From NCBI GenBank assembly GCA_947624625.1, contig CANQLD010000002.1, forward strand, positions 415 through 64,414: a stretch of 64,000 bases of DNA, in the 5' to 3' direction. The DNA comes from an uncultured Clostridia bacterium (lineage in GTDB: Bacteria > Bacillota > Clostridia > TANB77 > CAG-465). Made by a program: the position numbers and the translations under genes. Below are positions 7,293 to 38,500 of the stretch, one piece after another. Each line of letters opens with the position of its first letter. Position 1 is the stretch's first letter. The notes under the pieces were generated by a model. It was not told where the DNA came from. It did not search any database and was given only the letters and a program-made list of their open reading frames with translations.

Positions 7293-10200
7293 TAACTAAA
7301 GCCTCCTCCTTGTCTATAATCTCTTTTTCAAGAATTATACTTTCTTTATTACTTCCTTCAATTTCAGATGTTGTTAAGAAATCGTCAACATTTTGTATAT
7401 ATTTTTTAGCAAGGAAAGATAAAAGTTTAACTTCATTATCATCTAAAAATCTTACATTTAAAATAAATATGTTTCCTTTTGAATAGTCCATATATACTGC
7501 TCTATCAATTCTTGATTTTACAAAAGTATATAGTGGTCCATCTTTTTCTTGTTTCTCATTGATAAGTACAATAATATCTAAATCTATTTTTCTATTTTTT
7601 ACATAGTCCATAAATTTAATAACTTCACTAATAATTCCAGCATCTTCAATTTTATCTATGTATATAAGAAGAATTGGTAAATCTCCTGATATAGAATACT
7701 TCCAAAGCATTGACTGGCTTAATGATGTATCCCAGAATTTTGATGTATCAACTGTTATTCTATTAAATAATACTTCTTTTAAAATATTATTATATATTTC
7801 TGCTTTACCAGCTTCAAGTTGCAAATATCTAGATGTAACACTATTTAATTCACCTGTTAATTTAAACTGGTTAACTAGAGTTTTATTATCTAAATTTATT
7901 ACAGCATTAGATATTTTGTATTTACTATCACTAACACCTAAAACATAATAGAATTCTTGTCTTTCATATGCATCAAGTATAATTCTAGCTCTATATGAAA
8001 GCACTGGCCATAATGGATATCTATTAATTGTTTCGTTATATGCATTATCTATATCTTTAACTAATTTTTGTTTTTCTGTTTCCATTTCCTTTTCAAGGTC
8101 GATACCTATAAGTTTTGCATATACGAATAAATCTTCGTCATTTTCATTTTTCTTTCTTTTACTTGCAACTAGTATATCTAAATCTTCGTCATAATATGTT
8201 TCAATTTGCAAATTACTAAATGAAGGATGAACCACATTAGTCATATAATCTGTCATAGCCATTTCTATATATGTATTTATTATAATCTCTCTTCTAACAT
8301 TTGAATTGTTATATATACTTACCTTCTTTATTTCCATATTATATTCAGGCGACATATACATTGTTGTTGTTGTTTCAAGTTCATTACTTTCAAGATATGT
8401 TTCAATTTTATTAAGTGAAGCATTAAATAGTGATTTTTTCATATCCTTATTAATACTATGTGTAAGATTTGTATCCATTACAGAAATTGTTTTACCTGTT
8501 ACTTTATCTGTAAGATATATATAATTTCCACAGTTAGCTAAATTTGTATATCTTTGTTTGTTTATAATTTTATCTTTGTATTTTATAAACATATCTCCAG
8601 AATTTGTAACAATAGTTGAAAGATTTAAACCTTTTAACATTGCAATACAAGTTTCATCTTTAATTTCTGTATCAAGTTCTCTATCTTGAGATATATAATT
8701 TACAAATGTTGTATATTTTTGGATATTTTTCTGTTTGAATACATTTTCATTATCAATAGTAGATTTATTTATTGTTGCTCTTAGTTTTTCTCTTTCTTTA
8801 AGTAATATATCACAAGCTCTAATGTCAGGATTTTCGTGGAAACGTTCTTTAATAATTCCGTGATTTATATAATTATTAATTGATGCAAGTATCATACCTT
8901 GATGGTGAGCCATATATGTTTTTACGATTTCGAATTTTTCATTTTCTCCAATATGTTCTTTAGTATAATCAATTGCTTCATAGAAACCATAACTTGAATA
9001 TGCCCCTATCTTTTTTAATCTTTTTATATTTTTATATACACTATATGGATCATATTCTATTGTTAGAAGTGAAGCATATGGAGATACTACTAAGTAATCA
9101 TTAAGACCTCTTTTAAGTCCAAGCCAAGGAATTCCAAACTCTTGATATTGATAATTTAACTGATTATCCTTAACTGCAAATGCAGATTCAGATACTCCCC
9201 AAGGAACTTGGTTATCTCTTGCATATTTTAACTGACTAAATTTATTAAAGAATAATGATTGGTCAATTAGAGTATGTTCATATGATTTATTAAATATATA
9301 TGGCATAAAGTATTCAAATGATGTTCCTGCCCAAGATATAAGCCCCTTATAGCCATCAACTTTAACTAGATTTCTTGAAAGAGCAAACCAATGCTTTGAA
9401 GTTACCTGCCTTCTTGCAATAGCAATTAGACTTGTTGTTCTACTTTCAGACATTAACATATCATAGTAACTATCAATTAGCTTTCCACTTTCCTGAGCAT
9501 ATCCTACGTGGAATAAGTTTCTTGAAGTATCATATAACTCACTAAAATCAGTATCATTAATAAGTTGTTCATTTAAATCATATAAATAATCAAGTACTGT
9601 ATCATATTCTTCATTTTCTCTTTTACCATAAGAATTATTATCTTTAAGTTCATTTATAAACTGTCTTGCAACATAAAGGCAAGCTATAAAATTACCACTA
9701 TCTACTGTTGAAACAAATCTAGGTCTTAATGGTTCAAGTGTTTTTATATTATACCAGTTATATAAATGTCCTTTCCATTTTTCTAGTTTTTCTAAAGTTC
9801 CATATACATTTTTTAATTTAGTAATTGTTTCTTCTTTTGATATGAATTTTAAATCATATGCAGTTATTATTGCAAGTATTCCCATACCAATATTTGTAGA
9901 AGAAGTTCTATTTGCTATTTTGTATCTTCTATTTTCTTGATAGTTATCTGTTGGCAAATAGTTATTTACTTGTGTCATCATACTATCAAAGAAAAACCAA
10001 GTTCTTTTTGCAACTTCAAGCACTTCTTCTTCCTCTTTATCGTCAAGTCTTTTCCTTCTTCCAAGTAAATGGTCTTTTCCAAGTAAATATGCAAGAAATG
10101 GTGCGAATAAAAATGTAAATGCAATTATATATTTAACATTAAAATGTAATGCAGGGTATGTATTTATTGTTGGTATAATGAAAAGTAAAGCTGCAAATAT

Positions 10201-15049: not shown

Positions 15050-15090
15050 AATATTACAAAAATAAAGAGGCAAAATTAATTACCTCTTTA
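15050..15090 (-). terminator. Rho-independent terminator ending the vWA-kinase operon
   Basis: 8-bp stem TAAAGAGG/CCTCTTTA (15063..15070 and 15083..15090), followed by a T-rich tract on the minus strand. It lies 10 nt after the stop at 15100. Confidence 0.6.
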
Positions 15091-15099
15091 CTTTACAAT

Positions 15100-18000
15100 T
15101 TAATTATTATTTAACTTAGTAAACTCAAATGTATATTTTGAGTATTGGTATACTCTAAAACCTTTCAAAATTATTTCAATTTTAGAGTTTTTTGTTACTC
15201 CATTACACAAATAACAAGTTTCTTCTCCATTATCTATATCTATTGCACATATTTTTTCTAAGTCGGGATAAAAAAGCTTTTTGTTAAAATATATAGCATT
15301 AGAAAGATAAATGTCCTTTCTTAAGTTAGTTATTTTTGAAAGAAAATCTGTACAAGTTACTTCATTACAAGTTTTGTCACTCATAGATAACAAAAATGCC
15401 TTACAAGTTTTTGGTTCAACAACAAGCCATTTTTGAGTTATTAAATCTGCAAAAATATATGGTGTTGTATGTTTACCAAAATTTTTAATTACAGTTTCTA
15501 TTGCATAAACATATGAAAATATAACTGATAAATCATTATGACCGTTAATAGAAGAGATATTTAAAACCAAATTATCTGGGTATGTTACATTGCCATCACA
15601 TTGCAAGTCAATATCCTTTAAGAATATTTGTTTTTCTTCTCTTTGAGCAGATAAGATATTTAACTTGCCATCAGGTGTTAAATAGCAACATAAAAAGACA
15701 TTTGTAAATGGAATTGCAAGCCCAGCTTTTGGATAGATTACTTTTCTTTTCAAAATTTCATCTTTATCTACTTCTAAATTATTAATAAACGGCTTTACTG
15801 AAAAGTACAGTTTATTTTCACATATTTTAATTATAAAATTATTGTTACACTCATAAAAAGAAGTTGCGTCTTCTAAATATTTTTTAGGTATACCTTTTTT
15901 TGAAAACTTACTTGGAATATTAGCTAAGTTACACTTCAATTTAGAAAAAGCATTTAATACAACGTTTTTTGTATCAGAGATTTCATCATCATTATCCTCT
16001 GTATCAGGATTTTTCTTCTCTTCTTTTTCTACTGGTATCTCAATATCTTCTAATTTGCTAATATAGTTTATTTTAGTATTATAAAGTCTAAAATATTCAT
16101 TAACTAAGTATTTGCCAATATTAAAACGTTTATCTTTTTCAAAAATGTCGAGAAAGGCATTTACAAGCTCATCAGACATCCAGCTCCAATCTTCAATAAT
16201 TGGAGGTACGATAACATCATAATCACCAAGTACAGAGATTCTTGAAACCATTCTTTCTCTTTGTTTTAACACTCTACCATTTTCATCCTTATATACACCA
16301 TTAAATGGATGCAAAAAAGTCAAAACGTAAAATGCCATTATAGCAAGAGAATAATAATCTCCTTCAAAAGAAGATACACAATATCCATAACCTTCTCTAC
16401 TTGTATCTGCTACAACAGACAGTGGGTCTAAGAAAGGCTCCGTATAAACAGTATACTGACCCGGTTTTATATTCGCACTATCTAAGTCAATAACAGATAC
16501 TTCTTTTGTAGATAGATTAAATAGAACGTTATTATGGCTTACATCACCAATATAAATACCATTTATATGGCAAAATTCAATTGCACTACAAAGATAAATA
16601 AGTATCTCTAACTTATCTTTAAGAGTTATATTATACTTTTCAACTTTAGAACGGTCTGTAAGTATTCTAAAAGGCTTACTATTTGTAATTTCCTCAATAA
16701 CAGGACCACAAAATTCGTCAGTTTCATCATCAAGAATTAGTCCAACTGTTTTAGGAATTTTAAAGTTGTACATTGAAGTATCTTGAGGATTAATTTTAGT
16801 AATTAATGTACTAATTACTCTTTTTTTATTTTCAAAGTTTTGTAAGTTCCTTGAAGATTCCTCATTATCATTTTCTCTGTAAATTTTACCCAAGAAACCA
16901 TTTTCTAAATCGTAAATAATTGCTTCACGCCCATCTTCAGAAAATATGGGTTTCTTTTCTACTACACTTCTTTTATATCCTTCTACTTTATATCCACACA
17001 AAGGACATTTTCCATATATTGTAGGAGAATAATAAATGTTATGGAAAATACAAAACTTATTTGTAGAATTTATATATTCTCCTAGAATAGCTATAGCATT
17101 TTCAAAATTTTCACAAATAATGTAAGTACTAAACAACTTTATACGTTCTTTATCAAAACCAATTGCAAGTTCAAAATATTTCTTAAGAAATGTCTTTACA
17201 TTTGGAGTTATAACACTACCTTCTTCTTTTGTAAGATAAATAATTTCATTAACATAAACTTTAAAAGAAGTAGAAAATGAAATAAGCTCTTCAACGTCAA
17301 AACCTTTAATAAGAGATAAATGATTTACTTTTAGCTTAATTAAAAACTTTACAAAACCACGAATACACTTTAAAATTTCTAAATTGCTAAGTGTATCAAT
17401 ATCAAGTAGTTTTCTTGATTTACTTTCATAAGAAAGATAACCAATACTTTCTTTGTCTGAGCCAAAGTCAAATACGTTTTTATAAACGATATTTTTTAAG
17501 TTTATACCTTTCAAATTTCTTGCAAAGTTTACAAAATCAACTTCATTTTTACTCTTTACATTAAGACATTTAAATTGCAAACCGTTTACAATATCAATAC
17601 TATAAAGATATGTGGTAAATAAATCGTTTGAAGAAATCCCTTCGTACTTCTTTGTAAATCCCCTTTTATTTACAAAGAAGTCATCTTTAAGAAAAGCTGG
17701 CGAAGGGGTAAAACTTGTAAGAGTTCCGACATCATTACGAAGTTTTGCTAAAAAATCATATATGCGTTTTGTTTCTTTGCACATAACACTACTTCCAGCA
17801 TACGGAATACCAACTCTAACATCCCTTACATCAAAATTTGCAAGTTTGTATAATTTATTTATAGCTTTAACATAGGTATTCATAATTTTATAACAAATTT
17901 CTTTTTCTTTATCTTCCTTATCTTCTATATAGTTAATCAATACATTTTGGTTTAAGTAGTTATCATTGTAAACACAGTTTGATATAATTCTTCTTAAATT

Positions 18001-20223
18001 TACATACGGTTTAAGTGTTTTGCTAAAACAAATTGAATTAATATCAATGTATACCATATACTTCATTGAGTGATTAATTATTTGTAATAGTAACATGATT
18101 ATATCAAATATTGCTCTTACACGGTCTTCATATTTAAGTTTTGCAATTAATTTATCAACATCTGATAAATACACATAATTTTTATAGCTTCTCGAAGGAA
18201 ATTTTAGACCATAAATCTCAAAATCATCAGATACTTTTACAGTTGAATAATAAACTATATTTTCAGGTGCACAAATTACAGAAAGCTTATAATTTGAACC
18301 ACTAGATATTTTAGATGCATACCTTTTTATTGAGCTTATATGCTTAAGTAATGAAGAAACTTCATCATAAGCAAGTCTATTTGTTTTTAAGATATTTACA
18401 TCATTTGTTGGTAAATCATCAACAAATACAGGTGGTAATTTTCTCGGAGAAACTACATATTTTGAATAAAAATTTAACCCATATATTGAATAATCTGCCA
18501 AAGTATTTTTAATAGCCCTAAAAAAGTAAAATTTATCAAAATCGCCACCAGTTATATAGCTCTCATAGTATTTTATAAAATAAGGTGACATTGAATATAC
18601 ATAATACTTACCTTCTATATACTCAATTTTCCCCTCTTTAATATTATAACTAACAAGTTGATTAAAAAAGCTAATAAAGCTTTTTACTATAAAATCAATA
18701 AATTCTTCAGAAAGCTTATTATTAGACTCTTTTTTTACAATTTCCATATTTTCAATATTTCTAAAAATTAAACTATTATTTGGAATATCAACTATAATAT
18801 CATCAAGTGTTAATTCCTTGTTAAAGTTTAGTACACCAACTCCATCAATTAAATTATATAAATCCTTTGAGTAAAATTCAAGAATCTTACTATAAAGCTC
18901 TTTAAAAGTTTTTAACATATTGCTACAATTTATATACTTTGAAAGTGGAACTATATCTTCACTAGAATCACCAGTAAAAACACCGTAATCTTCAATCATA
19001 AAACCAATTGGATGTTCTTGTCCATCTTGATATATAAGTTTAAATATTTTGTAGTCATTATCAAACCTACTACTAGAATACAATTTCATAAAATTCTTTA
19101 AAAAACAACAAAGAACTTTCATATTACTTAGTGATTCTTCATCATCTTTTTTATAAATTATATAACTTGTTCCCTTATAGGTTATAACATCATACAAGCA
19201 TGTCGAATATTTTACATCACCATTTTTAATAATCGCTCTATATGTATCTTCAGTAACATATGAAAGCACGTCACTTGCATAAGGAGATACTAAAAGCCGT
19301 TTCCGATTGTATACATTATTTCCAAATATCGCTAAGTTTTCAAATTCTTCAGTTACTACCTTAGCAAAATATGCTAAATCAACATTTTCATTTAACTTAA
19401 AAACTCTTTTATATAAATCAATAAACTGGGTAGATAAGTAATGAAAACATTCGTCTTCTAATACTTTACTATAGTAGTATTCACCAAAATTTTGAGTTGA
19501 AAAGTCACAAAAGTGCAGTTTAGTTGCGACATACTTTAAATAGCATTTTAAATTAAATGAATAATTTAACTTTTTATTTTCATTCAAAACCTTCAACTCA
19601 TGTATATTATTCATTGTAAGATATGGTATACCAGCTACATCATTAATTTCACTTGTTTCCACAATTTCATTAAAAAATGGGGCTTCTGAGATTAAAATAC
19701 CATTTGAAGATAAAAATACTATAAAATTTAAAAGTGCCATTAGATATTTGTATACGTTGTTTTCTTTAAAAGTCTCAATGTTGGTACCAGAATTAAATCT
19801 TAACTCTAAATGCTTGAAGTTACGAATTTTAACGACATTATTCCGACGTAATATTCCTAAATTTATATAGCGTTCATAGCCTATTTTTATTGAGTCAAGA
19901 TTTTCTTGTTTTTCTGGAATTTCATATCCAATAATTGCTTTTTTAGAATCATTATCCTCGTAAATACATACAAGTTTAGCTACATTAAATTTAATAAGAG
20001 ACGAATCATCATATGATTTTAAAATCTGAATAATTTTTTCAAAATTTTCTTTATCTGTTATTGGATTTTTAGGAATAACAATCTTACGAAAAGTCCCTAA
20101 ATCATAGTAATAATTTACTGCAGAACCATTTGGAGATTTAACATCATTATTTTGTAAATTCGCAGATAAAAATCTCGATTTAAGTCCCAAAGAAAAATTT
20201 TTTATACCAGCTTTTATGTTCAT
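15100..20223 (-). CDS. 1707-aa multi-domain protein: about four degenerate kinase-like modules, a zinc ribbon, one apparently active Ser/Thr-kinase-like core and an unknown C-terminal domain
   Basis: Uninterrupted ORF. Kinase signatures in one segment: GFLGKIY, CHINGIYIGDVSHNNVLF (D-x4-N), VSVIDLDSA, YTEPFLDP and DYYSLAIMAFYVLTFLHPFNG. A CxxH...CPLC ribbon lies just upstream. The context is vWA + PP2C neighbours. Confidence 0.75.
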   Translation of the reverse strand: MNIKAGIKNFSLGLKSRFLSANLQNNDVKSPNGSAVNYYYDLGTFRKIVIPKNPITDKENFEKIIQILKSYDDSSLIKFNVAKLVCIYEDNDSKKAIIGYEIPEKQENLDSIKIGYERYINLGILRRNNVVKIRNFKHLELRFNSGTNIETFKENNVYKYLMALLNFIVFLSSNGILISEAPFFNEIVETSEINDVAGIPYLTMNNIHELKVLNENKKLNYSFNLKCYLKYVATKLHFCDFSTQNFGEYYYSKVLEDECFHYLSTQFIDLYKRVFKLNENVDLAYFAKVVTEEFENLAIFGNNVYNRKRLLVSPYASDVLSYVTEDTYRAIIKNGDVKYSTCLYDVITYKGTSYIIYKKDDEESLSNMKVLCCFLKNFMKLYSSSRFDNDYKIFKLIYQDGQEHPIGFMIEDYGVFTGDSSEDIVPLSKYINCSNMLKTFKELYSKILEFYSKDLYNLIDGVGVLNFNKELTLDDIIVDIPNNSLIFRNIENMEIVKKESNNKLSEEFIDFIVKSFISFFNQLVSYNIKEGKIEYIEGKYYVYSMSPYFIKYYESYITGGDFDKFYFFRAIKNTLADYSIYGLNFYSKYVVSPRKLPPVFVDDLPTNDVNILKTNRLAYDEVSSLLKHISSIKRYASKISSGSNYKLSVICAPENIVYYSTVKVSDDFEIYGLKFPSRSYKNYVYLSDVDKLIAKLKYEDRVRAIFDIIMLLLQIINHSMKYMVYIDINSICFSKTLKPYVNLRRIISNCVYNDNYLNQNVLINYIEDKEDKEKEICYKIMNTYVKAINKLYKLANFDVRDVRVGIPYAGSSVMCKETKRIYDFLAKLRNDVGTLTSFTPSPAFLKDDFFVNKRGFTKKYEGISSNDLFTTYLYSIDIVNGLQFKCLNVKSKNEVDFVNFARNLKGINLKNIVYKNVFDFGSDKESIGYLSYESKSRKLLDIDTLSNLEILKCIRGFVKFLIKLKVNHLSLIKGFDVEELISFSTSFKVYVNEIIYLTKEEGSVITPNVKTFLKKYFELAIGFDKERIKLFSTYIICENFENAIAILGEYINSTNKFCIFHNIYYSPTIYGKCPLCGYKVEGYKRSVVEKKPIFSEDGREAIIYDLENGFLGKIYRENDNEESSRNLQNFENKKRVISTLITKINPQDTSMYNFKIPKTVGLILDDETDEFCGPVIEEITNSKPFRILTDRSKVEKYNITLKDKLEILIYLCSAIEFCHINGIYIGDVSHNNVLFNLSTKEVSVIDLDSANIKPGQYTVYTEPFLDPLSVVADTSREGYGYCVSSFEGDYYSLAIMAFYVLTFLHPFNGVYKDENGRVLKQRERMVSRISVLGDYDVIVPPIIEDWSWMSDELVNAFLDIFEKDKRFNIGKYLVNEYFRLYNTKINYISKLEDIEIPVEKEEKKNPDTEDNDDEISDTKNVVLNAFSKLKCNLANIPSKFSKKGIPKKYLEDATSFYECNNNFIIKICENKLYFSVKPFINNLEVDKDEILKRKVIYPKAGLAIPFTNVFLCCYLTPDGKLNILSAQREEKQIFLKDIDLQCDGNVTYPDNLVLNISSINGHNDLSVIFSYVYAIETVIKNFGKHTTPYIFADLITQKWLVVEPKTCKAFLLSMSDKTCNEVTCTDFLSKITNLRKDIYLSNAIYFNKKLFYPDLEKICAIDIDNGEETCYLCNGVTKNSKIEIILKGFRVYQYSKYTFEFTKLNNN
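16110..16950 (-). other. Predicted catalytic protein-kinase core within the 1707-aa protein
   Basis: The catalytic-loop Asp codon is at 16543..16545 (IGDVSHNN). The DLD (DFG-equivalent) is at 16480..16488. Domain boundaries are approximate. Confidence 0.6.
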
Positions 20224-20241
20224 AAAATCTGCCTCCTTATC

Positions 20242-20874
20242 TTAAACGTTTGAAAATAAATCGATTCCTTCAATCATACTCTTAGAACATTGTTTAATAG
20301 TATCAAACATATCCGTTAAACCTTTGCTATCTCTTTTGAATTTATGGATATGTTCATATCCAAGACTTAAAATCTCCTTGTTTCTGTGGCCAAAAAGAAG
20401 TAAGTGTGTCTCAACATTATTTTGTTTTAAATACCTTATTGCATTTTGTGCCTCGTTTAGATAGTAGCCACTTTCTTTGCTACCTTCATCTTTACCATCA
20501 GTTATAGTAAAGAAAATTGTTTTTAAGTTATATCCACTATTTTGAGCTTTTTTTATATAACCTTCATTAGGAAAAAGCAAACTTTCAGTTATTCTACAAA
20601 TAGAATAATAAAGAATACTTTTCCCACCAGTTATATAGCTTGAAGAAAAATCACTTGGCTTGCAAACATCTTTTTCTTCATAATTACCTGAAAAATCAGC
20701 TCTAAGTATTAATACAACTGAACTATCTTCTATACCGTTTAAAAAGCCTTTAATGTCCTCAAACTCACTTGATACCTGTTCTTCCCATTTTTTCATTGAT
20801 GATGACTTATCAATCAAAAAAACAAGCAACGTTGTATTGTCCGATTTTACAACTTGGTCGTAATTTAGTAACAT
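20242..20874 (-). CDS. von Willebrand factor A domain protein (TerY-like), copy B
   Basis: MIDAS elements LVFLIDKSSSM (DxSxS) and FFTITDGKDEG. ATG at 20874 is preceded by GGGAGG. The stop lies 18 nt before the kinase gene start. Confidence 0.75.
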   Translation of the reverse strand: MLLNYDQVVKSDNTTLLVFLIDKSSSMKKWEEQVSSEFEDIKGFLNGIEDSSVVLILRADFSGNYEEKDVCKPSDFSSSYITGGKSILYYSICRITESLLFPNEGYIKKAQNSGYNLKTIFFTITDGKDEGSKESGYYLNEAQNAIRYLKQNNVETHLLLFGHRNKEILSLGYEHIHKFKRDSKGLTDMFDTIKQCSKSMIEGIDLFSNV

Positions 20875-20934
20875 TTCAATTCCTCCCATTTTTACATTAA
20901 ATTATTTTTGTAATAAAACAGATTTTACAGGCTA

Positions 20935-20963
20935 ATTATATCAAAATATTATGTAAAAGTCAA
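20935..20963 (-). promoter_or_regulatory. Sigma-A consensus promoter of the vWA-B/kinase operon
   Basis: Minus strand reads TTGACT (20958..20963), a 17-nt spacer, then TATAAT (20935..20940). Confidence 0.6.
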
Positions 20964-21011
20964 TAATTATGTTAATTATAAATATATATAATATCAAATA
21001 ATTACTAATTA

Positions 21012-21051
21012 TTCAAAAAATAAAAGACTAAGAAATTATTCTTAATCTTTT
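21012..21051 (-). terminator. Rho-independent terminator ending the TelA-PP2C-vWA-A operon
   Basis: 13-bp stem AAAAGACTAAGAA/TTCTTAATCTTTT (one G-U pair) at 21022..21051, followed by TTTTTT on the minus strand. Confidence 0.65.
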
Positions 21052-21064
21052 ATTTTTATACTAG

Positions 21065-21745
21065 TTAGAAATTCTCAAGCCAATTGTCAACATTTACAAT
21101 TTCCATCTTGCTTTGACTGATAGTTGTTTGAGTTATAGCATCCATTATTTGAACCAAAGCATCTTCGCTATTTTCTGGATCATATATCGAAGTAAAGCCG
21201 AGCTTTCTTGGAATGCTTCCATTACGTCCACCAAAATCGATAAAAATCATTGTGATGTCATTTTCAAGTGCCTCTGTCACACTATTCATTGCATCATCAA
21301 AATCATATCCAGAACCTTCTTCATCAAGACAATGCTCCCCATCTGAAAAATAGATGTTAAAAAGTGTAGGTGTATACCCTTGTTCAATTAGGGACTTTTT
21401 GGTTTGAATTGAAGAGTTTACAGAAGAAACAATTGCTCCATAAAGATCTGTCCAACCGTTTGCAGTATAATTTGTTGAAATATTCCTTATGTTAAGGTAT
21501 TTGCTATCGTTGTAATAATCTGCAAAATCAACCCTCGAAACAAAAATCCGTGATGCTTCTTCAGATGAAGAAATCTTTCTTTTGTATTCTTCAAGACATT
21601 CTCTCATAATTGATTCGTAACTATGCATTGAACTTGAACAGTCAAGTACTAATTTATAGAAATGCCCATCCATTGTACTTGGTGTTTCAAATAGGGTATC
21701 ATCCCCTTTAACACTGAATTCTTTCATCTTTTTTAAAACTGACAT
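21065..21745 (-). CDS. von Willebrand factor A domain protein (TerY-like), copy A
   Basis: MIDAS elements LVLDCSSSM, NGWTDLYGAI and IYFSDGEH. ATG at 21745 is preceded by GGAGGA. Confidence 0.75.
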   Translation of the reverse strand: MSVLKKMKEFSVKGDDTLFETPSTMDGHFYKLVLDCSSSMHSYESIMRECLEEYKRKISSSEEASRIFVSRVDFADYYNDSKYLNIRNISTNYTANGWTDLYGAIVSSVNSSIQTKKSLIEQGYTPTLFNIYFSDGEHCLDEEGSGYDFDDAMNSVTEALENDITMIFIDFGGRNGSIPRKLGFTSIYDPENSEDALVQIMDAITQTTISQSKMEIVNVDNWLENF

Positions 21746-21772
21746 TTTAAATCCTCCATTCATTTTTGTTTT

Positions 21773-22816
21773 TTATTCGTCGTCATTATTTAAAAAATTT
21801 AAAAGTTCTTCTTGCTTATTTTTCAAAGCTAAAGTATCAAAGCTTTTTTCAGCTTCTACAATCAAATCTTCAATACTAAAAAGTACAATAAAAAAATCAC
21901 CATTACTTAAAAAAGCTACTAAATTAGATATGTTCATTGTTTTAATCTTACTAAATTTTTCTCGTAACTCATCATAATATGTAGATTTTTTCAAACCTTC
22001 AATTTGTTCCTCTAGATTATTTAAATCGTGCATAAGAGGTACTAAATATTCAGATTTAAAATCCTCTTGATAGTTATACGACAAGTTATGAACTTTAGAA
22101 TATCTAATTGTACACTTTTCCAAAATATAGAAAAGTGTTGTGTATATATCTTTTAAGTTATTTGTATTAATTAAGTCATTAATTGAACTTTTAGAGAGTG
22201 TTTCTTCACCAAATACCCTTATTAAAATTTCTGAGATTTTTGATCTTGCCTGTGAAATACACTCCCTAAAACTTCCTTTATACTTTCCACGAATATACTG
22301 ATTATAATACTTAGATATTTCAGTATACAACTTAGTAAATCTATCTAAAAGAATTTTAGATAATGCTTCAAAGGTTATAAAATCATCAATCTCAGCCTGA
22401 ACTTTTCTAATTTTGTCAAGTAGTTCCTTGTTATATAATGGATTACAAGTAAAAACTAACTCATTACTTGTCATTGCTTTTACATATGCTTCATACTCTT
22501 GCTTACACTCTTTTTCAAGTTTATCAAGTTTTAAATTGAATTCTACGAACTCATTAGGACTTACAATTTCAATTCTTGAAAGTTTAGTTCTAAGAGAGTT
22601 AATATCGTCAATTAAAGTATTGCTTGCAACAAAAGGAAAATCAACTTTACTACCTTCCTCTTTAGAAGTACTTTCTGCCTCTTTAACAGCTTCTTCATCA
22701 TTTTGTTCATTAGATGTAGATTGATTTTTAAAAGAAAAATTAAAACTATCTTTTTTACTCAAAAGTTTCTCAAGAATCATTTTGTATAAATAGTTTAATT
22801 TATCTAGTAACTTCAC
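21773..22816 (-). CDS. Hypothetical protein, predicted mostly helical, with an acidic Ser/Glu-rich N-terminal region
   Basis: 347-aa ORF with a GTG start 8 nt after GAGGGGAG. It sits inside the TelA-PP2C-vWA operon. I recognise no family. Confidence 0.55.
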   Translation of the reverse strand: MKLLDKLNYLYKMILEKLLSKKDSFNFSFKNQSTSNEQNDEEAVKEAESTSKEEGSKVDFPFVASNTLIDDINSLRTKLSRIEIVSPNEFVEFNLKLDKLEKECKQEYEAYVKAMTSNELVFTCNPLYNKELLDKIRKVQAEIDDFITFEALSKILLDRFTKLYTEISKYYNQYIRGKYKGSFRECISQARSKISEILIRVFGEETLSKSSINDLINTNNLKDIYTTLFYILEKCTIRYSKVHNLSYNYQEDFKSEYLVPLMHDLNNLEEQIEGLKKSTYYDELREKFSKIKTMNISNLVAFLSNGDFFIVLFSIEDLIVEAEKSFDTLALKNKQEELLNFLNNDDE

Positions 22817-22833
22817 ATATTTTCTCTCCCCTC

Positions 22834-23775
22834 TTATGAGTAATTTTCATACTCAAGTTCAATACTATCTGCACCAAGCATAGCTAAAACTTCAACGTTT
22901 TCTTTATCAAGTACGTAAAATGTTAAGTTTATATCTCTTCCTTTAAAAGATTTAATGCAGCTTTGAGCAATACTTATTGAAGAGGAAGTTATATCATATA
23001 ACATATCTTTACCGTTACAAACAACACATATATTTTTTACCTTTGGAATAAAATAATCTCTACTTAACCTAAAAGTTGTAAAATATCTTCTAGAAATTGG
23101 TGTATGAATACCACTATCTAGCATCTTTAAGCAAGATTCCTTTTCCTTAATGGCGACCTCTAAGCAGCGGTCTAAATAATTCTTTTTCTCAATTTCAAAT
23201 TCTTTAGCTGTAATACAATTAGGCAGTTCAATATTTAAAGACTTTTCGTCAATCATTTTAATTAAATCAGCAATATTTAGACTTTGACTTGGAAAATCGC
23301 CACTATAAAAAGCCTTTTGTATTTCAGAAATATATTCTTCTGTTTCAGAAATTTTACTTACTTCAAGAATAGCAGTTGCCGAAAGCAATGTGTCATTTCT
23401 AAAAAAGAAACAATAATCACTTGTTAAATTTTTAGGTAATAATTTTTCTGCAACCCTCAAAAATTCTTCCTCAGTTATCCGTATATCAAAAACAAATATG
23501 GTAACAGTTTTTGTAAGTTGGGTTCTGTAGTTGTTTGGAAAAACGAAAGGTGCATAATATGGATAGTATTTATCATTTTTAAGTAATTCCCTTTCTTTTT
23601 TTTCGTCTACATAAACAACAGTTGCCGAGTTTTTGGAATTATTATCCCAATAGTCTCCTTGATATGGATAAGGATAAGAGCCTCCGTAATTTACTTGCTG
23701 CTTATTTACTGGAGGTTCATAATCAACAAAGCCATCAACGATTTCTTTTAAAATTTTAGTTACCTTTTTACCCAT
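22834..23775 (-). CDS. Hypothetical protein with a Tyr/Pro-rich N-terminus
   Basis: 313-aa ORF whose ATG overlaps the PP2C stop (ATGGGTAA). Contains GGSYPYPYQGDYWDNN. An alternating strand/helix pattern (TIFVFDIRITEEE, ICVVCNGKD) could be a MIDAS-less vWA-like fold, but this is unverified. Confidence 0.55.
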   Translation of the reverse strand: MGKKVTKILKEIVDGFVDYEPPVNKQQVNYGGSYPYPYQGDYWDNNSKNSATVVYVDEKKERELLKNDKYYPYYAPFVFPNNYRTQLTKTVTIFVFDIRITEEEFLRVAEKLLPKNLTSDYCFFFRNDTLLSATAILEVSKISETEEYISEIQKAFYSGDFPSQSLNIADLIKMIDEKSLNIELPNCITAKEFEIEKKNYLDRCLEVAIKEKESCLKMLDSGIHTPISRRYFTTFRLSRDYFIPKVKNICVVCNGKDMLYDITSSSISIAQSCIKSFKGRDINLTFYVLDKENVEVLAMLGADSIELEYENYS

Positions 23776-24493
23776 TTTGATTACCTCCTAAAAGTAAAAT
23801 TGTAGTATCGTCACAAAGATAATTTTTAAAAGACTTTATATAATTGTTTAATCTAGTATTTGCTTTATCTTCACTTAAGAAGTCAGAATTAGAAAGATAA
23901 AATTCTAGCTTTTCTTTCCCTTCTTTTCCTATACCATTAATTTTTTTTACAAAAGGATCAATACCATCGCTGGCAATACCTACAGCTTTAAAATATTCTT
24001 TCTTAAAGACATATTTTTTAAACTTAAGTTTAGGCTTGTCACTCATACAATAGTTGTATACAAGATAAGGTGGTTTGTTATGGTCATACGAAAAATGTAT
24101 ATACGAAAACATTCCACGTTTGTTTTGAGTAATTATATACCCGTCACCAAGTATATATACAATAAAATCGTCCTTTGTTTCAAAACAAGAAAGTAACGTA
24201 AAAAAGAGATTGTTTACAAGTAAATCAGTTGTATAGTTTCCGTCATTACAAATTTGCTTGTTATACTTTTGAAGCAAGCTTATTAACATCTCCATTATAT
24301 AGGTTATGTTTTCTTCAAATTTTTCTTCCTCATTACAAGTAGGAATTCCACCAAAAAGTTGAAGAATAAGCCTTGTACCAACTTCGCTATATTTACTTCT
24401 ACTGCAACCATCTGCTAACACACCAAAATTTTTGCCTGTTAAACAGAAATCTTGATTTGCATTGTGCTCTTTTCCTATAACTGATGCATACAT
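23768..24493 (-). CDS. PP2C-family Ser/Thr protein phosphatase-like protein
   Basis: N-terminal SVIGKEHNANQDF...GVLADGCS pattern and a later ILGDGYII/IASDGI pattern, as in bacterial PP2C_2-type phosphatases. ATG at 24493 is preceded by GGAGTG. Confidence 0.65.
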   Translation of the reverse strand: MYASVIGKEHNANQDFCLTGKNFGVLADGCSRSKYSEVGTRLILQLFGGIPTCNEEEKFEENITYIMEMLISLLQKYNKQICNDGNYTTDLLVNNLFFTLLSCFETKDDFIVYILGDGYIITQNKRGMFSYIHFSYDHNKPPYLVYNYCMSDKPKLKFKKYVFKKEYFKAVGIASDGIDPFVKKINGIGKEGKEKLEFYLSNSDFLSEDKANTRLNNYIKSFKNYLCDDTTILLLGGNQNG

Positions 24494-24519
24494 ATAGTTC
24501 ACTCCATTCCGTAACAATT

Positions 24520-25776
24520 TTACCACTCAAGTTTGTTTCCACTACCAGTTTTCTTGGTGGAAGTAGAAGTTTTTAGTCTGTCATATACAGTTTCTTCATC
24601 GTCAGCTTCTCCCTCACCAAGTAATGTAGCATTAAACTTACTTGATTTTTCAATAGCCTTTGCACGTCCGTGTTGTTCACTTTCTGCTTCTCTTACGCAT
24701 TTTTCAAACATTTCCTTACCTTCGTTAAATGCTTTTACTAAAACGTCAATGCACTGATTAACAACTTCTGCATCAACGTCACCCTTAGTAAGCAAACCAA
24801 CAATGTCAACAAAATTTGCCGCATGTGTATTTGCATTTTCAATCATAAGATTTTTGTTAAGCTCATTAAGCCCTTTGTAGCCATCAACCATTGAACGAAC
24901 CTTTTCAGCAAAAATAGCATTTCTTGCATTTTGACTGAAAATATTAAGGATTGTATCTTTAGCTGTGGTATACAAAAATTCCATTGCATTAAGCTCACCT
25001 ATTGTTGAGTTAATGAAGTTAGAAGAAAGATAAGTCGACTCTCTTTCCTCATCACGTTTTTTAAGTACAAGACTCATAATATTTAGTCCATTTTTTATAT
25101 CTTGAAATCTAAATAATTCATCCGTACTTAAAGCCACTGAATCTCCGTTTTCTTTCAACTGTTCTGCCTCTTCTTTAAAATGTTCCATAGCTATCAAACC
25201 CGCAATAATGTAGTCAGTAAGACTATCAATTGTCTCCTTATCCATTAAAGAAAGTTCTTTAGCTCTAGTATTTAAATTTTTGCACATACTTGCTTGTTTA
25301 TCCAAAGCAAGACCTAATTCTTCAAGAATTTCAGCAGAATTTTTCGCCTTTAAACTCATATCCTCTTTTTCCTTGTTACCAATAAACAAAGAAATCATTT
25401 TTTGGATAAAATTCTTTTCCTTTTGAACAATTTGCAGCTGACTAATTTCATCCTTCGACTTTGCAGAAAGTTCTGCAATTCGTTTAACCAGTTCTTCATC
25501 CTCTTTTTCTCCTGCCATTTCCTTCAAAAAATCCATATTTGCATTAGTGGATTTAACCGAAACATTTGAAGCATAGGCCATAACCTTATCCGTTGATGTA
25601 ACATCAATTTGCTCTGCAAGAGCTAAAACAGCTTCCCGTCTTTCGACTGGTAAAAGCCCGGCAGACTTTGCAGTAAGCATTGGCAGTGATGGAACATCAC
25701 TTTCATTTACTTCCACTATACTTGTTGTTTCTTCCGTCAATTCTTCCACCGTGTTTACGTTTTTCTCTTCAACCAT
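24520..25776 (-). CDS. telA: TelA-like (toxic anion resistance) family protein
   Basis: 418 aa. Shows the TelA-like N-terminal pattern LPVERREAVLALAEQIDVTSTDKVMAYASNV and a long helical body. ATG at 25776 is preceded by AGGAGG. Confidence 0.65.
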   Translation of the reverse strand: MVEEKNVNTVEELTEETTSIVEVNESDVPSLPMLTAKSAGLLPVERREAVLALAEQIDVTSTDKVMAYASNVSVKSTNANMDFLKEMAGEKEDEELVKRIAELSAKSKDEISQLQIVQKEKNFIQKMISLFIGNKEKEDMSLKAKNSAEILEELGLALDKQASMCKNLNTRAKELSLMDKETIDSLTDYIIAGLIAMEHFKEEAEQLKENGDSVALSTDELFRFQDIKNGLNIMSLVLKKRDEERESTYLSSNFINSTIGELNAMEFLYTTAKDTILNIFSQNARNAIFAEKVRSMVDGYKGLNELNKNLMIENANTHAANFVDIVGLLTKGDVDAEVVNQCIDVLVKAFNEGKEMFEKCVREAESEQHGRAKAIEKSSKFNATLLGEGEADDEETVYDRLKTSTSTKKTGSGNKLEW

Positions 25777-25847
25777 TTTCAAATCCTCCTTGTAATTTTT
25801 AATTAACTTCCTTACTATAGAAAGTATAGATATAATTATGTAAAGAC

Positions 25848-25876
25848 ATTATATCATTTTATGTCCACAAAGTCAA
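25848..25876 (-). promoter_or_regulatory. Sigma-A consensus promoter of the telA operon
   Basis: Minus strand reads TTGACT (25871..25876), a 17-nt spacer, then TATAAT (25848..25853). Confidence 0.6.
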
Positions 25877-25911
25877 TATTTATACTGTATTTTTACACAA
25901 ATCTAAATTCT

Positions 25912-25951
25912 CAAACAAAAAATAGTGGTCTAAAATTTAGACCACTATTTT
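25912..25951 (-). terminator. Rho-independent terminator after the Clp_N-AAA-M41 gene
   Basis: Perfect 12-bp stem AATAGTGGTCTA/TAGACCACTATT (25921..25949), followed by TTTTTG on the minus strand. Confidence 0.8.
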
Positions 25952-25984
25952 AATAATAAAATTAATTAAAAATAACAAATTAAA

Positions 25985-28120
25985 TTAACAAGATGCTACA
26001 TTTGCACAATTGCAATTTTGATAAATTTTATCTAAGTCAGATTTAACCAAAATACAATTTTTTACTAAGGCATTTGCAACTACATTCAAAAATTCTGAGT
26101 TATCAGCAAGTATTTCTTTTGCTCGTTTATATTGCTCAGCCAAAATTTGATTAATCTTAGAATTAATCATATTAATACATTCATTACTCGAATCAAGAAT
26201 ATTACTTTCAGCTCCATAAGAAGCAATACCAATATCTTTATCCATACCAAAAACTGAGATATAATTTTTAGCAATACTTGTTGCTTGTTCAAGATCATTT
26301 GTTGGACCAGTTGTCACAATACCAAATCTCATCTCTTCAATTGCCTTTCCAGCTAACAAAGTTGCAATTTCGTCAAGACAATACTTGCTATCAAAATTTA
26401 CAAAAAAATCATTTTTTTCAGTTACATTAACACCTAAATACGTTGATGTAGGTAAAATTGATATTGCTATTACATCATCTTTTTTTATAGAGCTAGTCAT
26501 TTTAGCAACAACATAATGTGCTGCTTCGTGGTATGCAATTTGCAAAACATCTTCTTTAGCCATACCATTAAATAGCTCTATACTATTTAAAAATACTTGT
26601 TTTACGTGTTGTTTTGTAACTTTGTCACTACCAGCAAGTTTTGCAACTACCATAGCTCTATCACATAAATCAAGTGTTTTATCAGGATTAGACGAATCAA
26701 TGTTAAAACACGAAGAAGCAGTTATAATAAACTTCAAAACACCATTTGCAAGACTTACATTATGGAATTTTTTAAGTGCTTCAACTTTTTTACTTATCAT
26801 TTGTTCTACTTTGTCATATTTAGGTTCTTTAACTTCAATTACTTCAAACCTTCTTTTATATGCTTTATCTGACTCAATAAAGTATTTATATTCTTCAAAA
26901 GTTGTTGTACCAATTACAATTGTATCATCTCTTGAAAGAATTGGTTTTAAAGCACCACTTAAATCACTTGTTCCTCCTTCAGATGTACCAGCACCTCTAG
27001 TTCTATGTATTTCATCAATAAAGAGAATTACATTATGAGTCATATTGATAAACTCTTTAAAAAGAACGATTTTTTCTTCAAACTCGCCTCTATATTTAGT
27101 ACCTGCAACAAGAGAGTCAATATCAAAGTTTACAACTAAATAATTTTCAAATTCTTTAGGGCACTCCTTATTTACAATTTGTTGAGTAAGAGCTTCAACA
27201 ATTGCTGTTTTACCAACACCTGGCTTACCAACAAGAATCGAATTTCGTTTAGTTTTCTTTGAAATAATACTCCAAAGTTGTGCAATCTCTTTATCTCTAC
27301 AAAGAATTTCGCATTTTTGACCTTTTTTATATTTATTATTTAAGACTTCACAACAATTCTCAAGTGCAGAAGGTATAAGCAGTGAATTTTTACTGCCACC
27401 TTTAGTTTTAAAGATATTTGAATTATTTTCAATATACCTTATAAAATCGTCAATTGTAACATTATTCATTACATCATCAATTATCATCTTCATAAGCTTA
27501 TATGCACTTGATTCTGGTATTTTAAGAAGATAATAAATGATAGGGTCAATCACTAAAACTTTAGAATTAGTTTTTTTGCACTGAACAGAGGCTTTTTCTA
27601 ATGCCTCATAAAGTGAAACTGAAAACTTTATTGTAATATCTGTTAAATACTCTTGTTCCTTTAACATCTCAGTTTGTTCATTTATTACGTCTTCTACGTA
27701 TTTTTCAACGTTTTCTTTAATTATTGCTTTAGCATCAATAAACTTGCCATCACCATTTTCGTCACTTGCACCCGAATCATTTTCTTCGTCACTTTCATTA
27801 GCTTCTTCTTCGTTTTCGTCTGAATTTTCTTCTTCTTCATCACCAAAAAAGTAATCACAAAATTCGTCATCAAATACACTTGCAAAAACAGAAGGATTGG
27901 TTACGATAGTGTTAATTATATCCGAAGCGTCAAGTGCTAACCCATTCTCAATGAAAAACTTTTCAATTACTGTTTCCTTTTGTGCTATTGCCCCAATAAG
28001 GAAGTAAGCCGACCGTATAGCTTGATCTTCAAATTTAGTTTGCAAAATAGTTGCTTGTTGCAAAGCATTTCTAACAACTGAACTAACCGGAATGTTAGTA
28101 TAATCTGTAAATTTTTTCAT
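25985..28120 (-). CDS. Soluble chimeric AAA+ metalloprotease: Clp_N-like repeats + ClpA/B/C D1-type AAA module + FtsH-type M41 peptidase domain
   Basis: Walker A ILVGKPGVGKTAIVEAL, then AGTKYRGEFEEK, Walker B ILFIDEIH, KRRFEVIEV and PDKTLDLCDRA (Clp D1 signatures). These are followed by AYHEAAHYVVA (HExxH, 26516..26530) and TTGPTNDLEQAT as in FtsH. No TM helix is evident. ATG at 28120 is preceded by AAGGAGG. Confidence 0.8.
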   Translation of the reverse strand: MKKFTDYTNIPVSSVVRNALQQATILQTKFEDQAIRSAYFLIGAIAQKETVIEKFFIENGLALDASDIINTIVTNPSVFASVFDDEFCDYFFGDEEEENSDENEEEANESDEENDSGASDENGDGKFIDAKAIIKENVEKYVEDVINEQTEMLKEQEYLTDITIKFSVSLYEALEKASVQCKKTNSKVLVIDPIIYYLLKIPESSAYKLMKMIIDDVMNNVTIDDFIRYIENNSNIFKTKGGSKNSLLIPSALENCCEVLNNKYKKGQKCEILCRDKEIAQLWSIISKKTKRNSILVGKPGVGKTAIVEALTQQIVNKECPKEFENYLVVNFDIDSLVAGTKYRGEFEEKIVLFKEFINMTHNVILFIDEIHRTRGAGTSEGGTSDLSGALKPILSRDDTIVIGTTTFEEYKYFIESDKAYKRRFEVIEVKEPKYDKVEQMISKKVEALKKFHNVSLANGVLKFIITASSCFNIDSSNPDKTLDLCDRAMVVAKLAGSDKVTKQHVKQVFLNSIELFNGMAKEDVLQIAYHEAAHYVVAKMTSSIKKDDVIAISILPTSTYLGVNVTEKNDFFVNFDSKYCLDEIATLLAGKAIEEMRFGIVTTGPTNDLEQATSIAKNYISVFGMDKDIGIASYGAESNILDSSNECINMINSKINQILAEQYKRAKEILADNSEFLNVVANALVKNCILVKSDLDKIYQNCNCANVASC

Positions 28121-28169
28121 TAAAGACTCCTCCTTTAATATAAGTAAGTATAATATATTATTTAAACAA

Positions 28170-28198
28170 ATTATACCTTCCGAATTTCGAATTGTCAA
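28170..28198 (-). promoter_or_regulatory. Sigma-A consensus promoter of the Clp_N-AAA-M41 gene
   Basis: Minus strand reads TTGACA (28193..28198), a 17-nt spacer, then TATAAT (28170..28175). Confidence 0.6.
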
Positions 28199-28744: not shown

Positions 28745-29617
28745 TTATTCAATATAATTCTCTTTGTCTTCAATATTCTTTTGTAAATTTGGTTCTTCAT
28801 TACTTTTTATATTCTCTATTTCCTCATTACTTTTTACCATACCTTGTAAATCCTTACTAAAATCTGAAGTGTCAGCTATAACATTTTCATTACTATTGCT
28901 TAAATTAGATAAATCATTATTAGGTGGATTAAGCATTTTTGTATTTTTATTCCTAGTAAACATATCTTTAAATTTAGAAAATACTTTTAGGAAAGTTTCT
29001 TTTACCTCAACTGGATAAGATTTTAATGAATTTAATTTAGTATTATTAGTTAATTTGTGCAAATTTAGTTTATCTACTAATTCTTGTGAAGGTACATACT
29101 CTCCTTTTTCTATTTCTTCTTCTGTTTTTTCTCTTGAAATAATATTTCCTTTTTCATCTAAATCAAGTACCATTTGCACTTTTGTAGCACAACTATTATT
29201 TAGTTCATACTTACCTTTATATACAATTGCGTCATCATTAAATGAACGTTGTTTAAAGTTTGACAAAATTTCTCTTGCTTTCTCAGTTGGTACTTCGTTA
29301 TTTTGTGCGTCCTTTTTTAAGTCTATTTTTACTGCACTAAATTCATAACTTGTTGAACTACTTGAAACGTTTCTAAGTAAATCGTTATATGAAGGCTTTC
29401 CTGCAAAGAAAAAACATTTTTTACTACCCATTGAAATAAAATTACTACTTGGTTTTATATACCCACTTTCTAAAATTTTATCTGCATTTTCTGGAGTAGT
29501 TACGTGGTATAATCCATTATTAATAATTTCATTATTCATTTTTTCATCAACTTTTGTATAAATCATTTTAGTTGCAAGAATACCAGAATTTATAGCAATA
29601 AAAGTTCCTAATATCAT
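28745..29617 (-). CDS. Hypothetical N-terminally membrane-anchored protein
   Basis: 290-aa ORF with a 4-nt overlap (ATGA) with the plsC stop. It has an N-terminal hydrophobic helix and a low-complexity Asn/Glu-rich C-terminus. No family assigned. Confidence 0.5.
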   Translation of the reverse strand: MILGTFIAINSGILATKMIYTKVDEKMNNEIINNGLYHVTTPENADKILESGYIKPSSNFISMGSKKCFFFAGKPSYNDLLRNVSSSSTSYEFSAVKIDLKKDAQNNEVPTEKAREILSNFKQRSFNDDAIVYKGKYELNNSCATKVQMVLDLDEKGNIISREKTEEEIEKGEYVPSQELVDKLNLHKLTNNTKLNSLKSYPVEVKETFLKVFSKFKDMFTRNKNTKMLNPPNNDLSNLSNSNENVIADTSDFSKDLQGMVKSNEEIENIKSNEEPNLQKNIEDKENYIE

Positions 29618-34318: not shown

Positions 34319-34711
34319 TTAATTTAAATCTTCGATAAAATGAACAAGCGAGCTTATAAAAGTCGAATTAATCATTTTATTGTTTGGTTCAAGTGCGTTT
34401 TTACCAAAAACATAGACAAGTTCGTCGTTATTATTTGAACCAACCATACAACACTCAACTGCGTGACGAATTGACCTTTCTACTCTAGACCTTGTTGTGT
34501 CGAATTTTTTAGCAAGCTCTTCATACAAGCCACCTACAATGTTACGCAAATACCCGTGGTCGGATAAGCCAAGAATCACAGCCTCTTTGATGTAGTCATA
34601 CCCCTGAATTCCTTGAGGCACTCCGATATACTTTAAAAGCAAACCTGTTTTCCGAGATAATGATACCTCTTCCCTCATTTTTTCTTCCAACCTGTCCAAA
34701 CCGTCTTTCAT
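34319..34711 (-). CDS. Stand-alone Spo0A C-terminal (DNA-binding) domain protein, no receiver domain
   Basis: The segment IGVPQGIQGYDYIKEAV...LYEELAKKFDTTRSRVERSIRHAVE aligns with B. subtilis Spo0A IGVPAHIKGYLYLREAI...[25 protein letters not shown]. ATG at 34711 is preceded by GAGGAGG. Confidence 0.8.
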   Translation of the reverse strand: MKDGLDRLEEKMREEVSLSRKTGLLLKYIGVPQGIQGYDYIKEAVILGLSDHGYLRNIVGGLYEELAKKFDTTRSRVERSIRHAVECCMVGSNNNDELVYVFGKNALEPNNKMINSTFISSLVHFIEDLN

Positions 34712-38494: not shown

Positions 38495-38500
38495 GTTAAG

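Follow-up and report, generated by a model that had tools for sequence, protein, structure and literature searches.

TerY-P triads, in which a vWA protein is encoded with a PP2C-type phosphatase and a Ser/Thr kinase, are widespread and mechanistically opaque, and to our knowledge no signal, substrate or effector has been assigned to them, even for YegI, PphC and YegL of Escherichia coli. Here, we analysed positions 15050-28198 of a 64,000-nucleotide stretch of contig CANQLD010000002.1 from an uncultured Clostridia bacterium (assembly GCA_947624625.1; the whole stretch is referred to below as the window), with a focus on the seven genes that run from position 25776 to position 15100. Based on profile comparisons and on the neighbourhoods of their relatives, these genes very probably form one functional cassette, an enlarged, lineage-specific triad of the TerY-P type that is joined to a TelA-family gene.

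In E. coli, YegI is a protein of 648 residues with two membrane spans (10.1101/819920) that acts as an active, autophosphorylating Ser/Thr kinase, and the adjacent PphC (YegK) is a PP2C-like phosphatase (10.1101/819920, 10.1101/303594). TerY-P triads have been proposed to work as metal-sensing phospho-switches, and variants with an OB-fold defend against T7-like phages (PMC11090510, PMC7699616). The genes of the cassette described here are, in order of transcription:

24520-25776, minus strand: TelA-family protein by profile evidence, cassette gene 1, 418 residues counted from the ATG that bears a ribosome-binding site (RBS)
23768-24493, minus strand: PP2C-type Ser/Thr phosphatase, 241 residues
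22834-23775, minus strand: unkA, 313 residues
21773-22816, minus strand: unkB, 347 residues, predicted all-alpha (~500 residues in most orthologues)
21065-21763, minus strand: vWA1, with metal ion-dependent adhesion site (MIDAS) residues DCSSS…T…SDGE
20242-20889, minus strand: vWA2, with MIDAS residues DKSSS…TDG, a paralogue of vWA1
15100-20223, minus strand: giant kinase, 1707 residues

The true start of vWA2 is more likely the ATG at 20874, since the RBS GGGAGGA sits before this second ATG.

The cassette thus holds the same three component types, vWA, PP2C and Ser/Thr kinase, as the E. coli YegL–PphC/YegK–YegI triad. This likeness had been drawn in a preliminary description of the DNA, made from its letters alone, and it was borne out by profile–profile alignment with hhalign: the giant kinase family aligned with YegI at 95.9% probability (E 5e-9, 238 columns) along the entire catalytic domain and also in subfamily-specific motifs outside the Hanks core, and the vWA family aligned with YegL at 90.6% probability (E 1.3e-6) across the MIDAS region. 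Unlike YegI, however, the cassette kinase is a soluble protein of 1,707 residues, ~1,000 of which form an additional N-terminal part that contains pseudokinase modules and zinc ribbons. The genes are also ordered differently from those of the E. coli triad, and the triad genes are not contiguous here, with unkA and unkB parting the PP2C gene from the vWA genes and with vWA2 and the kinase of the window placed in a separate transcription unit; in addition, the cassette encodes two MIDAS-type vWA proteins and one MIDAS-less vWA-like protein, and has TelA in the operon.

The giant kinase can be divided into the following parts:

17794-20223, minus strand: residues 1-810, N-terminal array with putative kinase-like modules M1-M3 (profile–profile matches)
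17227-17793, minus strand: residues ~811-999, zinc-ribbon remnant and pseudokinase M4 (hhalign)
16996-17052, minus strand: CHCC zinc ribbon 2 (C1058, H1061, C1073, C1076), invariant in 24 orthologues
16114-16956, minus strand: residues ~1090-1370, YegI-like Ser/Thr kinase domain (Pfam Pkinase and hhalign)
15103-16026, minus strand: residues ~1400-1707, C-terminal beta-rich domain, common to the ~570-residue triad kinases described below

The last kinase domain appears to be catalytically intact. It possesses a G-loop, K1113, the catalytic loop IGDVSHNN, with D1227 as the catalytic Asp and N1232, and D1246; the giant orthologues show no variation at the catalytic K, D, N and D positions, and the profile of the giant family finds S6K, PKA and PknB in the PDB. 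The Pfam Pkinase model scored 31.8 bits in the window protein, exactly at its cut-off, and matched 20 of the 24 orthologues. The giant protein had been credited with several kinase-like modules, of which Pfam detects this one only, but profile comparison clearly added M4 and, more weakly, M1-M3. The alignment of M4 to the zinc-ribbon and kinase region of its own family reached 96.9% probability (E 1.6e-10, 174 columns), and because its G-loop, catalytic Asp and Asn and DFG Asp are all substituted, the last three family-wide, we regard it as a pseudokinase. When a kinase profile built from 24 giants and 55 triad kinases was aligned to residues 1-810, matches were obtained for M3 (E 8.4e-4), M2 (4.6e-3) and M1 (0.13) that are collinear, in register and ~250-280 residues apart, which suggests two to three further degenerate kinase-like modules ahead of M4; these residues gave no Pfam or PDB match. 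Two CHCC zinc ribbons stand one ahead of each of the last two kinase-like modules, and the first of them is kept in at least 90% of the orthologues and degenerate in the window protein. The C-terminal domain shows a weak internal repeat (E 4.6e-4), had no match in the PDB or Pfam, and is presumed to be a sensor or partner-binding module. A word-indexed search with the giant protein as a single sequence returned no relative but the protein itself. No transmembrane segments were found in the proteins, and all seven cassette products are predicted to be cytoplasmic.

The relation of the giant protein to smaller triad kinases is seen in compact triads at more than 50 loci of gut and other metagenomes (L040-L117, GC 0.24-0.50), in which genes for a vWA protein of ~224 residues, a PP2C of ~210-228 and a kinase of ~565-580 follow one another in this order. 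Their PP2Cs are more distant members of the cassette PP2C subfamily, their vWA proteins match the cassette vWA profile, and in end-to-end alignments their kinases cover positions 970-1550 of the hidden Markov model (HMM) of the giant family, with E values of 1e-64 to 1e-75. Given this end-to-end match, the giant corresponds to a triad kinase of ~570 residues, made up of the catalytic domain and a beta-rich C-terminal domain of ~270 residues, to which ~1,000 N-terminal residues have been added. Unlike the cassette, the compact triads are without TelA, unkA, unkB and the N-terminal extension. They often lie among many small co-directional open reading frames (ORFs) and have a phage- or prophage-like look (for example L040:8343-12397 and L064:8294-12339). 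A conserved protein of ~302 residues, with apparent isochorismatase/nicotinamidase-like motifs, is usually encoded 5' of them; this protein and unkA were considered as equivalents of TelA or unkB and were rejected, as no similarity was found. YegI-like kinase domains with 28-31% identity to a triad kinase also occur in uncultured phages of 460-595 kb:

LR745208.1, 214180-214893: YegI-like kinase domain
LR756511.1, 120853-121563: YegI-like kinase domain
LR756500.1, 71434-72213: YegI-like kinase domain

The remaining domain assignments, namely TelA, PP2C, vWA and, for the gene next to the cassette, a Clp-D1-type AAA module with an M41 peptidase, were all supported at the level of families. The phosphatase matches PF13672 (PP2C_2) with 33.7 bits against a cut-off of 24, and its metal-binding motifs NQD, DGCS, GDG, SDG and DD are invariant. 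It belongs to a small subfamily, as a HMMER search of 1.84 billion representatives returned 33 clusters at E<=1e-30 and 227 at E<=1e-10. By profile evidence, cassette gene 1 is a member of the TelA/KlaA toxic-anion-resistance family (PF05816): the PF05816 model matches 23 of 24 cassette TelA orthologues (best E 1.4e-29), and the window protein shares 29% identity over 378 residues (E 4e-43) with the TelA of a 47%-identical relative (contigs L004-L006). A classical ter cluster carries TerB, TerC, TerD and TerZ, whereas none of TerB, TerC and TerD/TerZ was found among the cassette proteins or the annotated neighbours in L001-L006 and L036.

In the vWA family of 28 members, D41, S43, S45, T105, D141 and G142 (DxSxS, T and DG) show no or almost no variation, and the Pfam VWA model matches 15 members. 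vWA2 is 50% identical to the vWA2 of L004 and 26-27% identical to vWA1 orthologues, and a second vWA gene was seen solely in the window and in L004-L006. The unkA product, which the preliminary description had left as an unknown protein, has a variable N-terminal region followed by a vWA-like C-terminal region of ~190 residues in which neither DxSxS nor SDG is present. Its alignment with the vWA family reached 58.6% probability in hhalign and, with an enlarged vWA profile, 90.5% (E 1.4e-6, 154 columns), so that it resembles a degenerate vWA-like protein that has no MIDAS motif. It is also the fastest-evolving gene, with 39% identity to its counterpart in L001, where neighbouring genes have 61-78%. 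unkB is kept at the same place of the cassette in 27 loci; its profile had no match in Pfam, the PDB or the TelA family, and an AlphaFold2 (AF2) model based on a shallow alignment was all-helical with a pLDDT score (predicted local distance difference test) of 54, for which Foldseek returned generic helical matches only.

In order to define the unit that is conserved, loci were gathered by a scan with the PP2C alignment, taking one genome per species, which gave 27 loci (L009 is the same contig as L001), all of them in metagenome-assembled genomes (MAGs) of uncultured Clostridia from animal guts. The TelA–PP2C–unkA–unkB–vWA–giant kinase block was intact in 26 further species-level Clostridia MAGs and in metagenome contigs, and the TelA-to-kinase genes are conserved together. 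This documents, for a little-known clade of Clostridia from animal guts, a multi-kinase-fold protein with over 1,500 residues as a conserved trait. The usual sizes are ~405-420 residues for TelA, ~220-240 for PP2C, ~250-330 for unkA, ~495-505 for unkB, ~235-250 for a single vWA protein and ~1520-1660 for the kinase. The order is the same almost everywhere, with one locus rearranged (L023:6267-11413, TelA–unkA–unkB–PP2C–vWA) and one apparently decaying (L017:8566-11008, where TelA is in pieces of 77 and 279 residues and unkA is cut to 121 residues, which may reflect decay or an assembly error). A word-indexed search with the PP2C yielded five close relatives whose contigs give the neighbourhood. 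A 78%-identical relative (L001-L003) has the whole arrangement, including the uracil-DNA glycosylase (UDG) family gene and the protease gene, whereas in the 47%-identical relative (L004-L006) the order TelA–PP2C–355 residues–342 residues–vWA, followed by vWA–1605-residue kinase, lies beside a pair of GH94 genes and no protease is present. The vWA gene is thus duplicated in the window and in the L004 lineage, and the window cassette is split into two transcription units.

These data bear on whether the genes belong together at all. Several window components fall below curated thresholds and L017 has its split TelA and truncated unkA, as would be expected of a chance juxtaposition or of decaying remnants that share no function, but ~25 divergent genomes carry these six genes in an identical order although the flanks change, the reading frames are intact at 1.5-1.7 thousand residues, and the catalytic and MIDAS residues are invariant. 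The conservation data already refute a chance juxtaposition, and we give this explanation next to no weight.

The same comparison sets the boundary of the system. The preliminary description had counted the protease as an eighth gene and possible effector of one three-operon system, and indeed, both in the window and in L001/L009, it lies next to the cassette in the same orientation, its gene has a slightly raised G+C content at third codon positions (GC3, 0.164) and one CGG codon, and AAA+ proteases are plausible effectors. However, a Clp/M41 homologue adjoins the cassette solely in the window and in this 78%-identical relative, and of the 26 other species-level loci, 25 have none within 10 kb of the cassette, nor was one found there in L004-L006 or L036; the gene also has its own strong promoter and terminator. 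Since cmk–plsC–UDG is likewise common to the window and L001, the adjacency is explained by ordinary synteny. An eight-gene system is therefore very unlikely: the protease is an independent neighbour in a separate transcription unit, and because the block recurs with changing flanks and with the protease present only in the window and L001/L009, the unit is the cassette from TelA to the kinase.

In the searchable literature we did not find a description of this exact architecture, of an operon that links TelA with a giant kinase, of a six-gene arrangement of this kind, of a giant with several pseudokinase modules, of a MIDAS-less vWA paralogue or of the restriction to a single clade of gut Clostridia, which is in line with the view that the combination is new. 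The triad itself and TelA in Ter-type neighbourhoods are known already, and the cassette is an elaboration of the triad and no new type of system. The anti-phage TerY-P system of Gao et al. 2020 and the TerY-P modules of Type II and III-A CoCoNuTs combine vWA, PP2C and Ser/Thr kinase as the cassette does (PMC7699616, PMC11090510), but their kinases end in an OB-fold (defence form) or a zinc ribbon (CoCoNuT form) (PMC11090510), whereas in the cassette kinase the zinc ribbons precede the kinase domain and the C-terminus is a distinct beta-rich domain. The cassette also has no McrBC, HEPN or other nuclease partners. PADLOC, proposed earlier as a check, returned no TerY-P match for the cassette proteins and none for the E. 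coli YegL/PphC/YegI control either, so that its negatives are uninformative.

The cassette occupies several unrelated insertion points (secA|prfB, rpsT|yabG, rpsR|patatin and GH94|tig). In one subclade SecA is encoded upstream and RF2 downstream, which places the block inside the usually tight secA–prfB pair; in another, tmk–thyA–folA/rpsT lie upstream and a gene for a YabG-type peptidase downstream; and in a further one rpsF–ssb–rpsR lie upstream and a patatin-like gene downstream. A GH94 pair of the window (5235-12885, minus strand, 1868 and 685 residues) shares 68% identity with the pair that abuts the L004 cassette (L004:387-8046). In the window typA lies between this pair and the cassette, whereas the L004 pair abuts directly, which points to local rearrangement of the cassette's surroundings. 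Between the window and L004 the cassette proteins have 23-50% identity, against the 68% of the flanking GH94 proteins, and between the window and L001 the flanks have 63-90%, with unkA at 39% and both unkB and the protease at 61%. Sequence change has been much more rapid in the cassette genes than in the genes that flank them.

Rapid divergence, insertion at several sites, raised GC3 and, between loci, differences in vWA copy number, gene order and domain content resemble, by analogy, what is seen in conflict systems, and we consider an invader-sensing role, anti-phage and of the abortive type, somewhat more likely than a housekeeping role in envelope or metal stress. According to the latter explanation, the same cassette with the same biochemistry would serve lineage-core envelope or metal-stress signalling, or developmental signalling, with TelA as a regulated stress protein and no part in immunity. 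Members of the TelA family have been connected with the ability to withstand tellurite and antimicrobials that act on the envelope, which fits such a role, as do the housekeeping flanks and their synteny within subclades (secA upstream in 8 loci, and the tmk–thyA–folA/rpsT group). The yegI/pphC/yegL genes of E. coli are chromosomal and are not known to act in defence (10.1101/819920). On the other hand, the rate at which the cassette proteins diverge relative to adjoining genes, the changes in copy number and order, the unrelated insertion points, including the one within secA–prfB, and the raised GC3 speak against a housekeeping module, as does the anti-phage activity established for a related triad (PMC7699616). 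We hold a housekeeping role to be possible and somewhat less likely than invader sensing.

Codon composition had been taken as a sign of foreign origin. CGG codons number 7 in the island and 0 in the seven flanking genes closest to it, but relative to the rest of the window ORFs the contrast is marginal (7/4187 versus 9/15612, Fisher p=0.058), and the CGG count was dropped as a strong sign. For GC3 the rise in the island is clear, with 0.206 against 0.137 (Mann-Whitney p=1e-5). With att-like repeats, tRNA and mobility genes absent, a foreign origin of the island is weakly supported.

Several results weigh against the interpretation of the genes as a TerY-P-type cassette in an invader-sensing role. 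The TelA-like protein of the window has no PF05816 match at E<0.1 and no Pfam match at all, the window vWA proteins are individually at or below noise against Pfam, and PDB sequence searches with the window TelA and vWA proteins returned nothing; with the window proteins below Pfam thresholds, the TelA and vWA assignments rest on the orthologue families and do not stand for these proteins by themselves. An hhalign comparison of the PP2C with E. coli PphC was not significant. The matches that define M1-M3 are sub-significant and the evidence for these modules is weak, and an AF2 model of giant residues 801-1707 was poor (pLDDT 30.5, from a shallow alignment of six proteins). As to the role, the neighbours of the cassette are housekeeping genes, with no defence genes or integrases nearby, and searches near the island revealed no tRNA genes, Rfam families, bordering direct or att-like repeats or mobility genes. 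No recognisable toxic effector (nuclease, pore former or NADase) was found in the cassette. A PHROGs search gave nothing for the cassette proteins, a scan of viral contigs found no cassette, and tblastn detected no cassette in plasmid records and kinase-domain fragments only in phage records. Considering this absence from viral contigs, plasmids and phage records, a lineage-core physiological role is quite possible.

Based on the biochemistry of YegI and PphC (10.1101/819920, 10.1101/303594) and the TerY-P literature (PMC11090510, PMC7699616), we infer for the cassette a reversible switch, with sensing by the C-terminal domain or pseudokinases, vWA adaptors and an output through TelA or unkB, and we regard the mechanism in the following wording as moderately likely. 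A signal would be received by the C-terminal domain, the pseudokinase array or both and would lead to trans-autophosphorylation of the single active kinase domain. The kinase would then phosphorylate partners encoded in the cassette, for which the MIDAS-type vWA proteins, the MIDAS-less unkA, unkB and TelA are candidates, and the vWA proteins may serve as metal-dependent adaptors through which these partners are brought together or set free. The PP2C would reset the switch, and the output may be exerted through TelA and/or unkB at the cell envelope. A further point to be weighed against this proposal is that each step past an active kinase, a PP2C and a MIDAS-type vWA protein is inferred. Nevertheless, the cassette keeps candidate partners (TelA, a helical protein, and MIDAS and MIDAS-less vWA proteins) together with a pseudokinase array, and thereby offers concrete hypotheses on what such a switch binds and controls; its interest would climb sharply should the array turn out to act in sensing.

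In plant immunity, tandem kinase–pseudokinase proteins, like the giant, unite an active kinase with at least one degenerate kinase-like domain in the same chain, although they share no homology with the giant past the kinase fold and the modules of the giant are interleaved with zinc ribbons. By analogy, the giant could be a bacterial tandem-kinase immune receptor, in which the dead modules and zinc ribbons would serve as decoys or sensors for phage factors that target kinases and would switch on the live YegI-like kinase, with the vWA proteins relaying to a TelA/unkB envelope effector that aborts infection. We consider this version improbable, and a decoy function of the dead kinase modules is pure speculation; if true, the giant would be a prokaryotic equivalent of the tandem-kinase resistance proteins found in plants.

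The neighbouring protease has an unusual composition:

25985-28120, minus strand: Clp/M41 protease, 711 residues counted from the RBS-bearing ATG

It matches Peptidase_M41 (1.5e-32), AAA (9e-12) and AAA_lid_9 in Pfam, and among the NCBIfam models ClpA (3.8e-69, 233.7 bits) at residues 134-508, with FtsH TIGR01241 restricted to residues 519-695. The protein is soluble, with no transmembrane segment, and has the M41 motif HEAAH and Walker A and B motifs in a Clp-D1-type AAA+ module; a faint Clp_N match was seen in an orthologue only. Like FtsH, it combines M41 with HEAAH, but it is without the membrane anchor and the FtsH-type AAA module. Like Clp/Hsp100 proteins (ClpA/B/C) it has a D1-type AAA+ ring, but M41 stands where the D2 ring would be, and the ClpA, ClpB and ClpV models cover it by the D1 half only (residues ~134-508). 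tblastn gave no match of at least 80% of its length among 50,697 phage and 72,556 plasmid records. This soluble Clp-D1/M41 chimeric protease deserves study in its own right.

With the protease gene included, the island comprises eight co-oriented minus-strand ORFs in three predicted transcription units, as had been described, each unit with a promoter-like site and an intrinsic terminator:

28170-28198, minus strand: promoter-like site of the protease gene (not of the conserved cassette), TTGACA-17-TATAAT, 12/12 consensus, 50 nt 5' of the RBS-bearing ATG at 28120
25919-25951, minus strand: intrinsic terminator after the protease gene, 15-bp stem and U-tract, -17.8 kcal/mol, z -5.7
25848-25876, minus strand: promoter-like site of the TelA–PP2C–unkA–unkB–vWA1 unit, TTGACT-17-TATAAT and extended TG, 11/12
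21018-21055, minus strand: AT-rich intrinsic terminator between vWA1 and vWA2, 17-bp hairpin and U-tract, -16.4 kcal/mol, z -5.7
20935-20963, minus strand: promoter-like site of the vWA2–kinase unit, TTGACT-17-TATAAT and extended TG, 11/12
15059-15094, minus strand: intrinsic terminator after the kinase gene, 15-bp stem and U-tract, -17.0 kcal/mol, z -6.2

The three promoter-like sites are the best matches of the region and each lies inside an intergenic gap. Sigma-70-type matches overall numbered 95, with 85 expected in this AT-rich DNA, and weaker matches were no commoner than in shuffled sequence; as consensus-like matches are frequent in AT-rich DNA, the evidence for these promoters consists of match quality and intergenic position. 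The terminator between vWA1 and vWA2 was overlooked by a consensus scan because its stem has fewer than 3 GC pairs.

The island is bordered by a TypA-like GTPase gene (assigned from sequence motifs) and a UDG-family gene (Pfam), and the surroundings are those of an ordinary chromosome, with the TypA-like gene, UDG, plsC, cmk, serS, PriA, a class A penicillin-binding protein and the GH94 pair. Between plsC and the UDG gene, positions 28745-29617 (minus strand) encode a protein of 290 residues that has no Pfam match and has a counterpart with 63% identity at the same place in L001. Further away, five tandem ORFs of ~350 residues at 37274-43176 (minus strand), with DUF4116 in two of the three checked, contain exactly one CGG codon each, a codon otherwise rare in the window. 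The ORF at 34319-34798 (minus strand), which by synteny is the counterpart of the Spo0A_C-domain gene of L001, has the highest GC3 of the window, 0.35 against a mean of 0.137.

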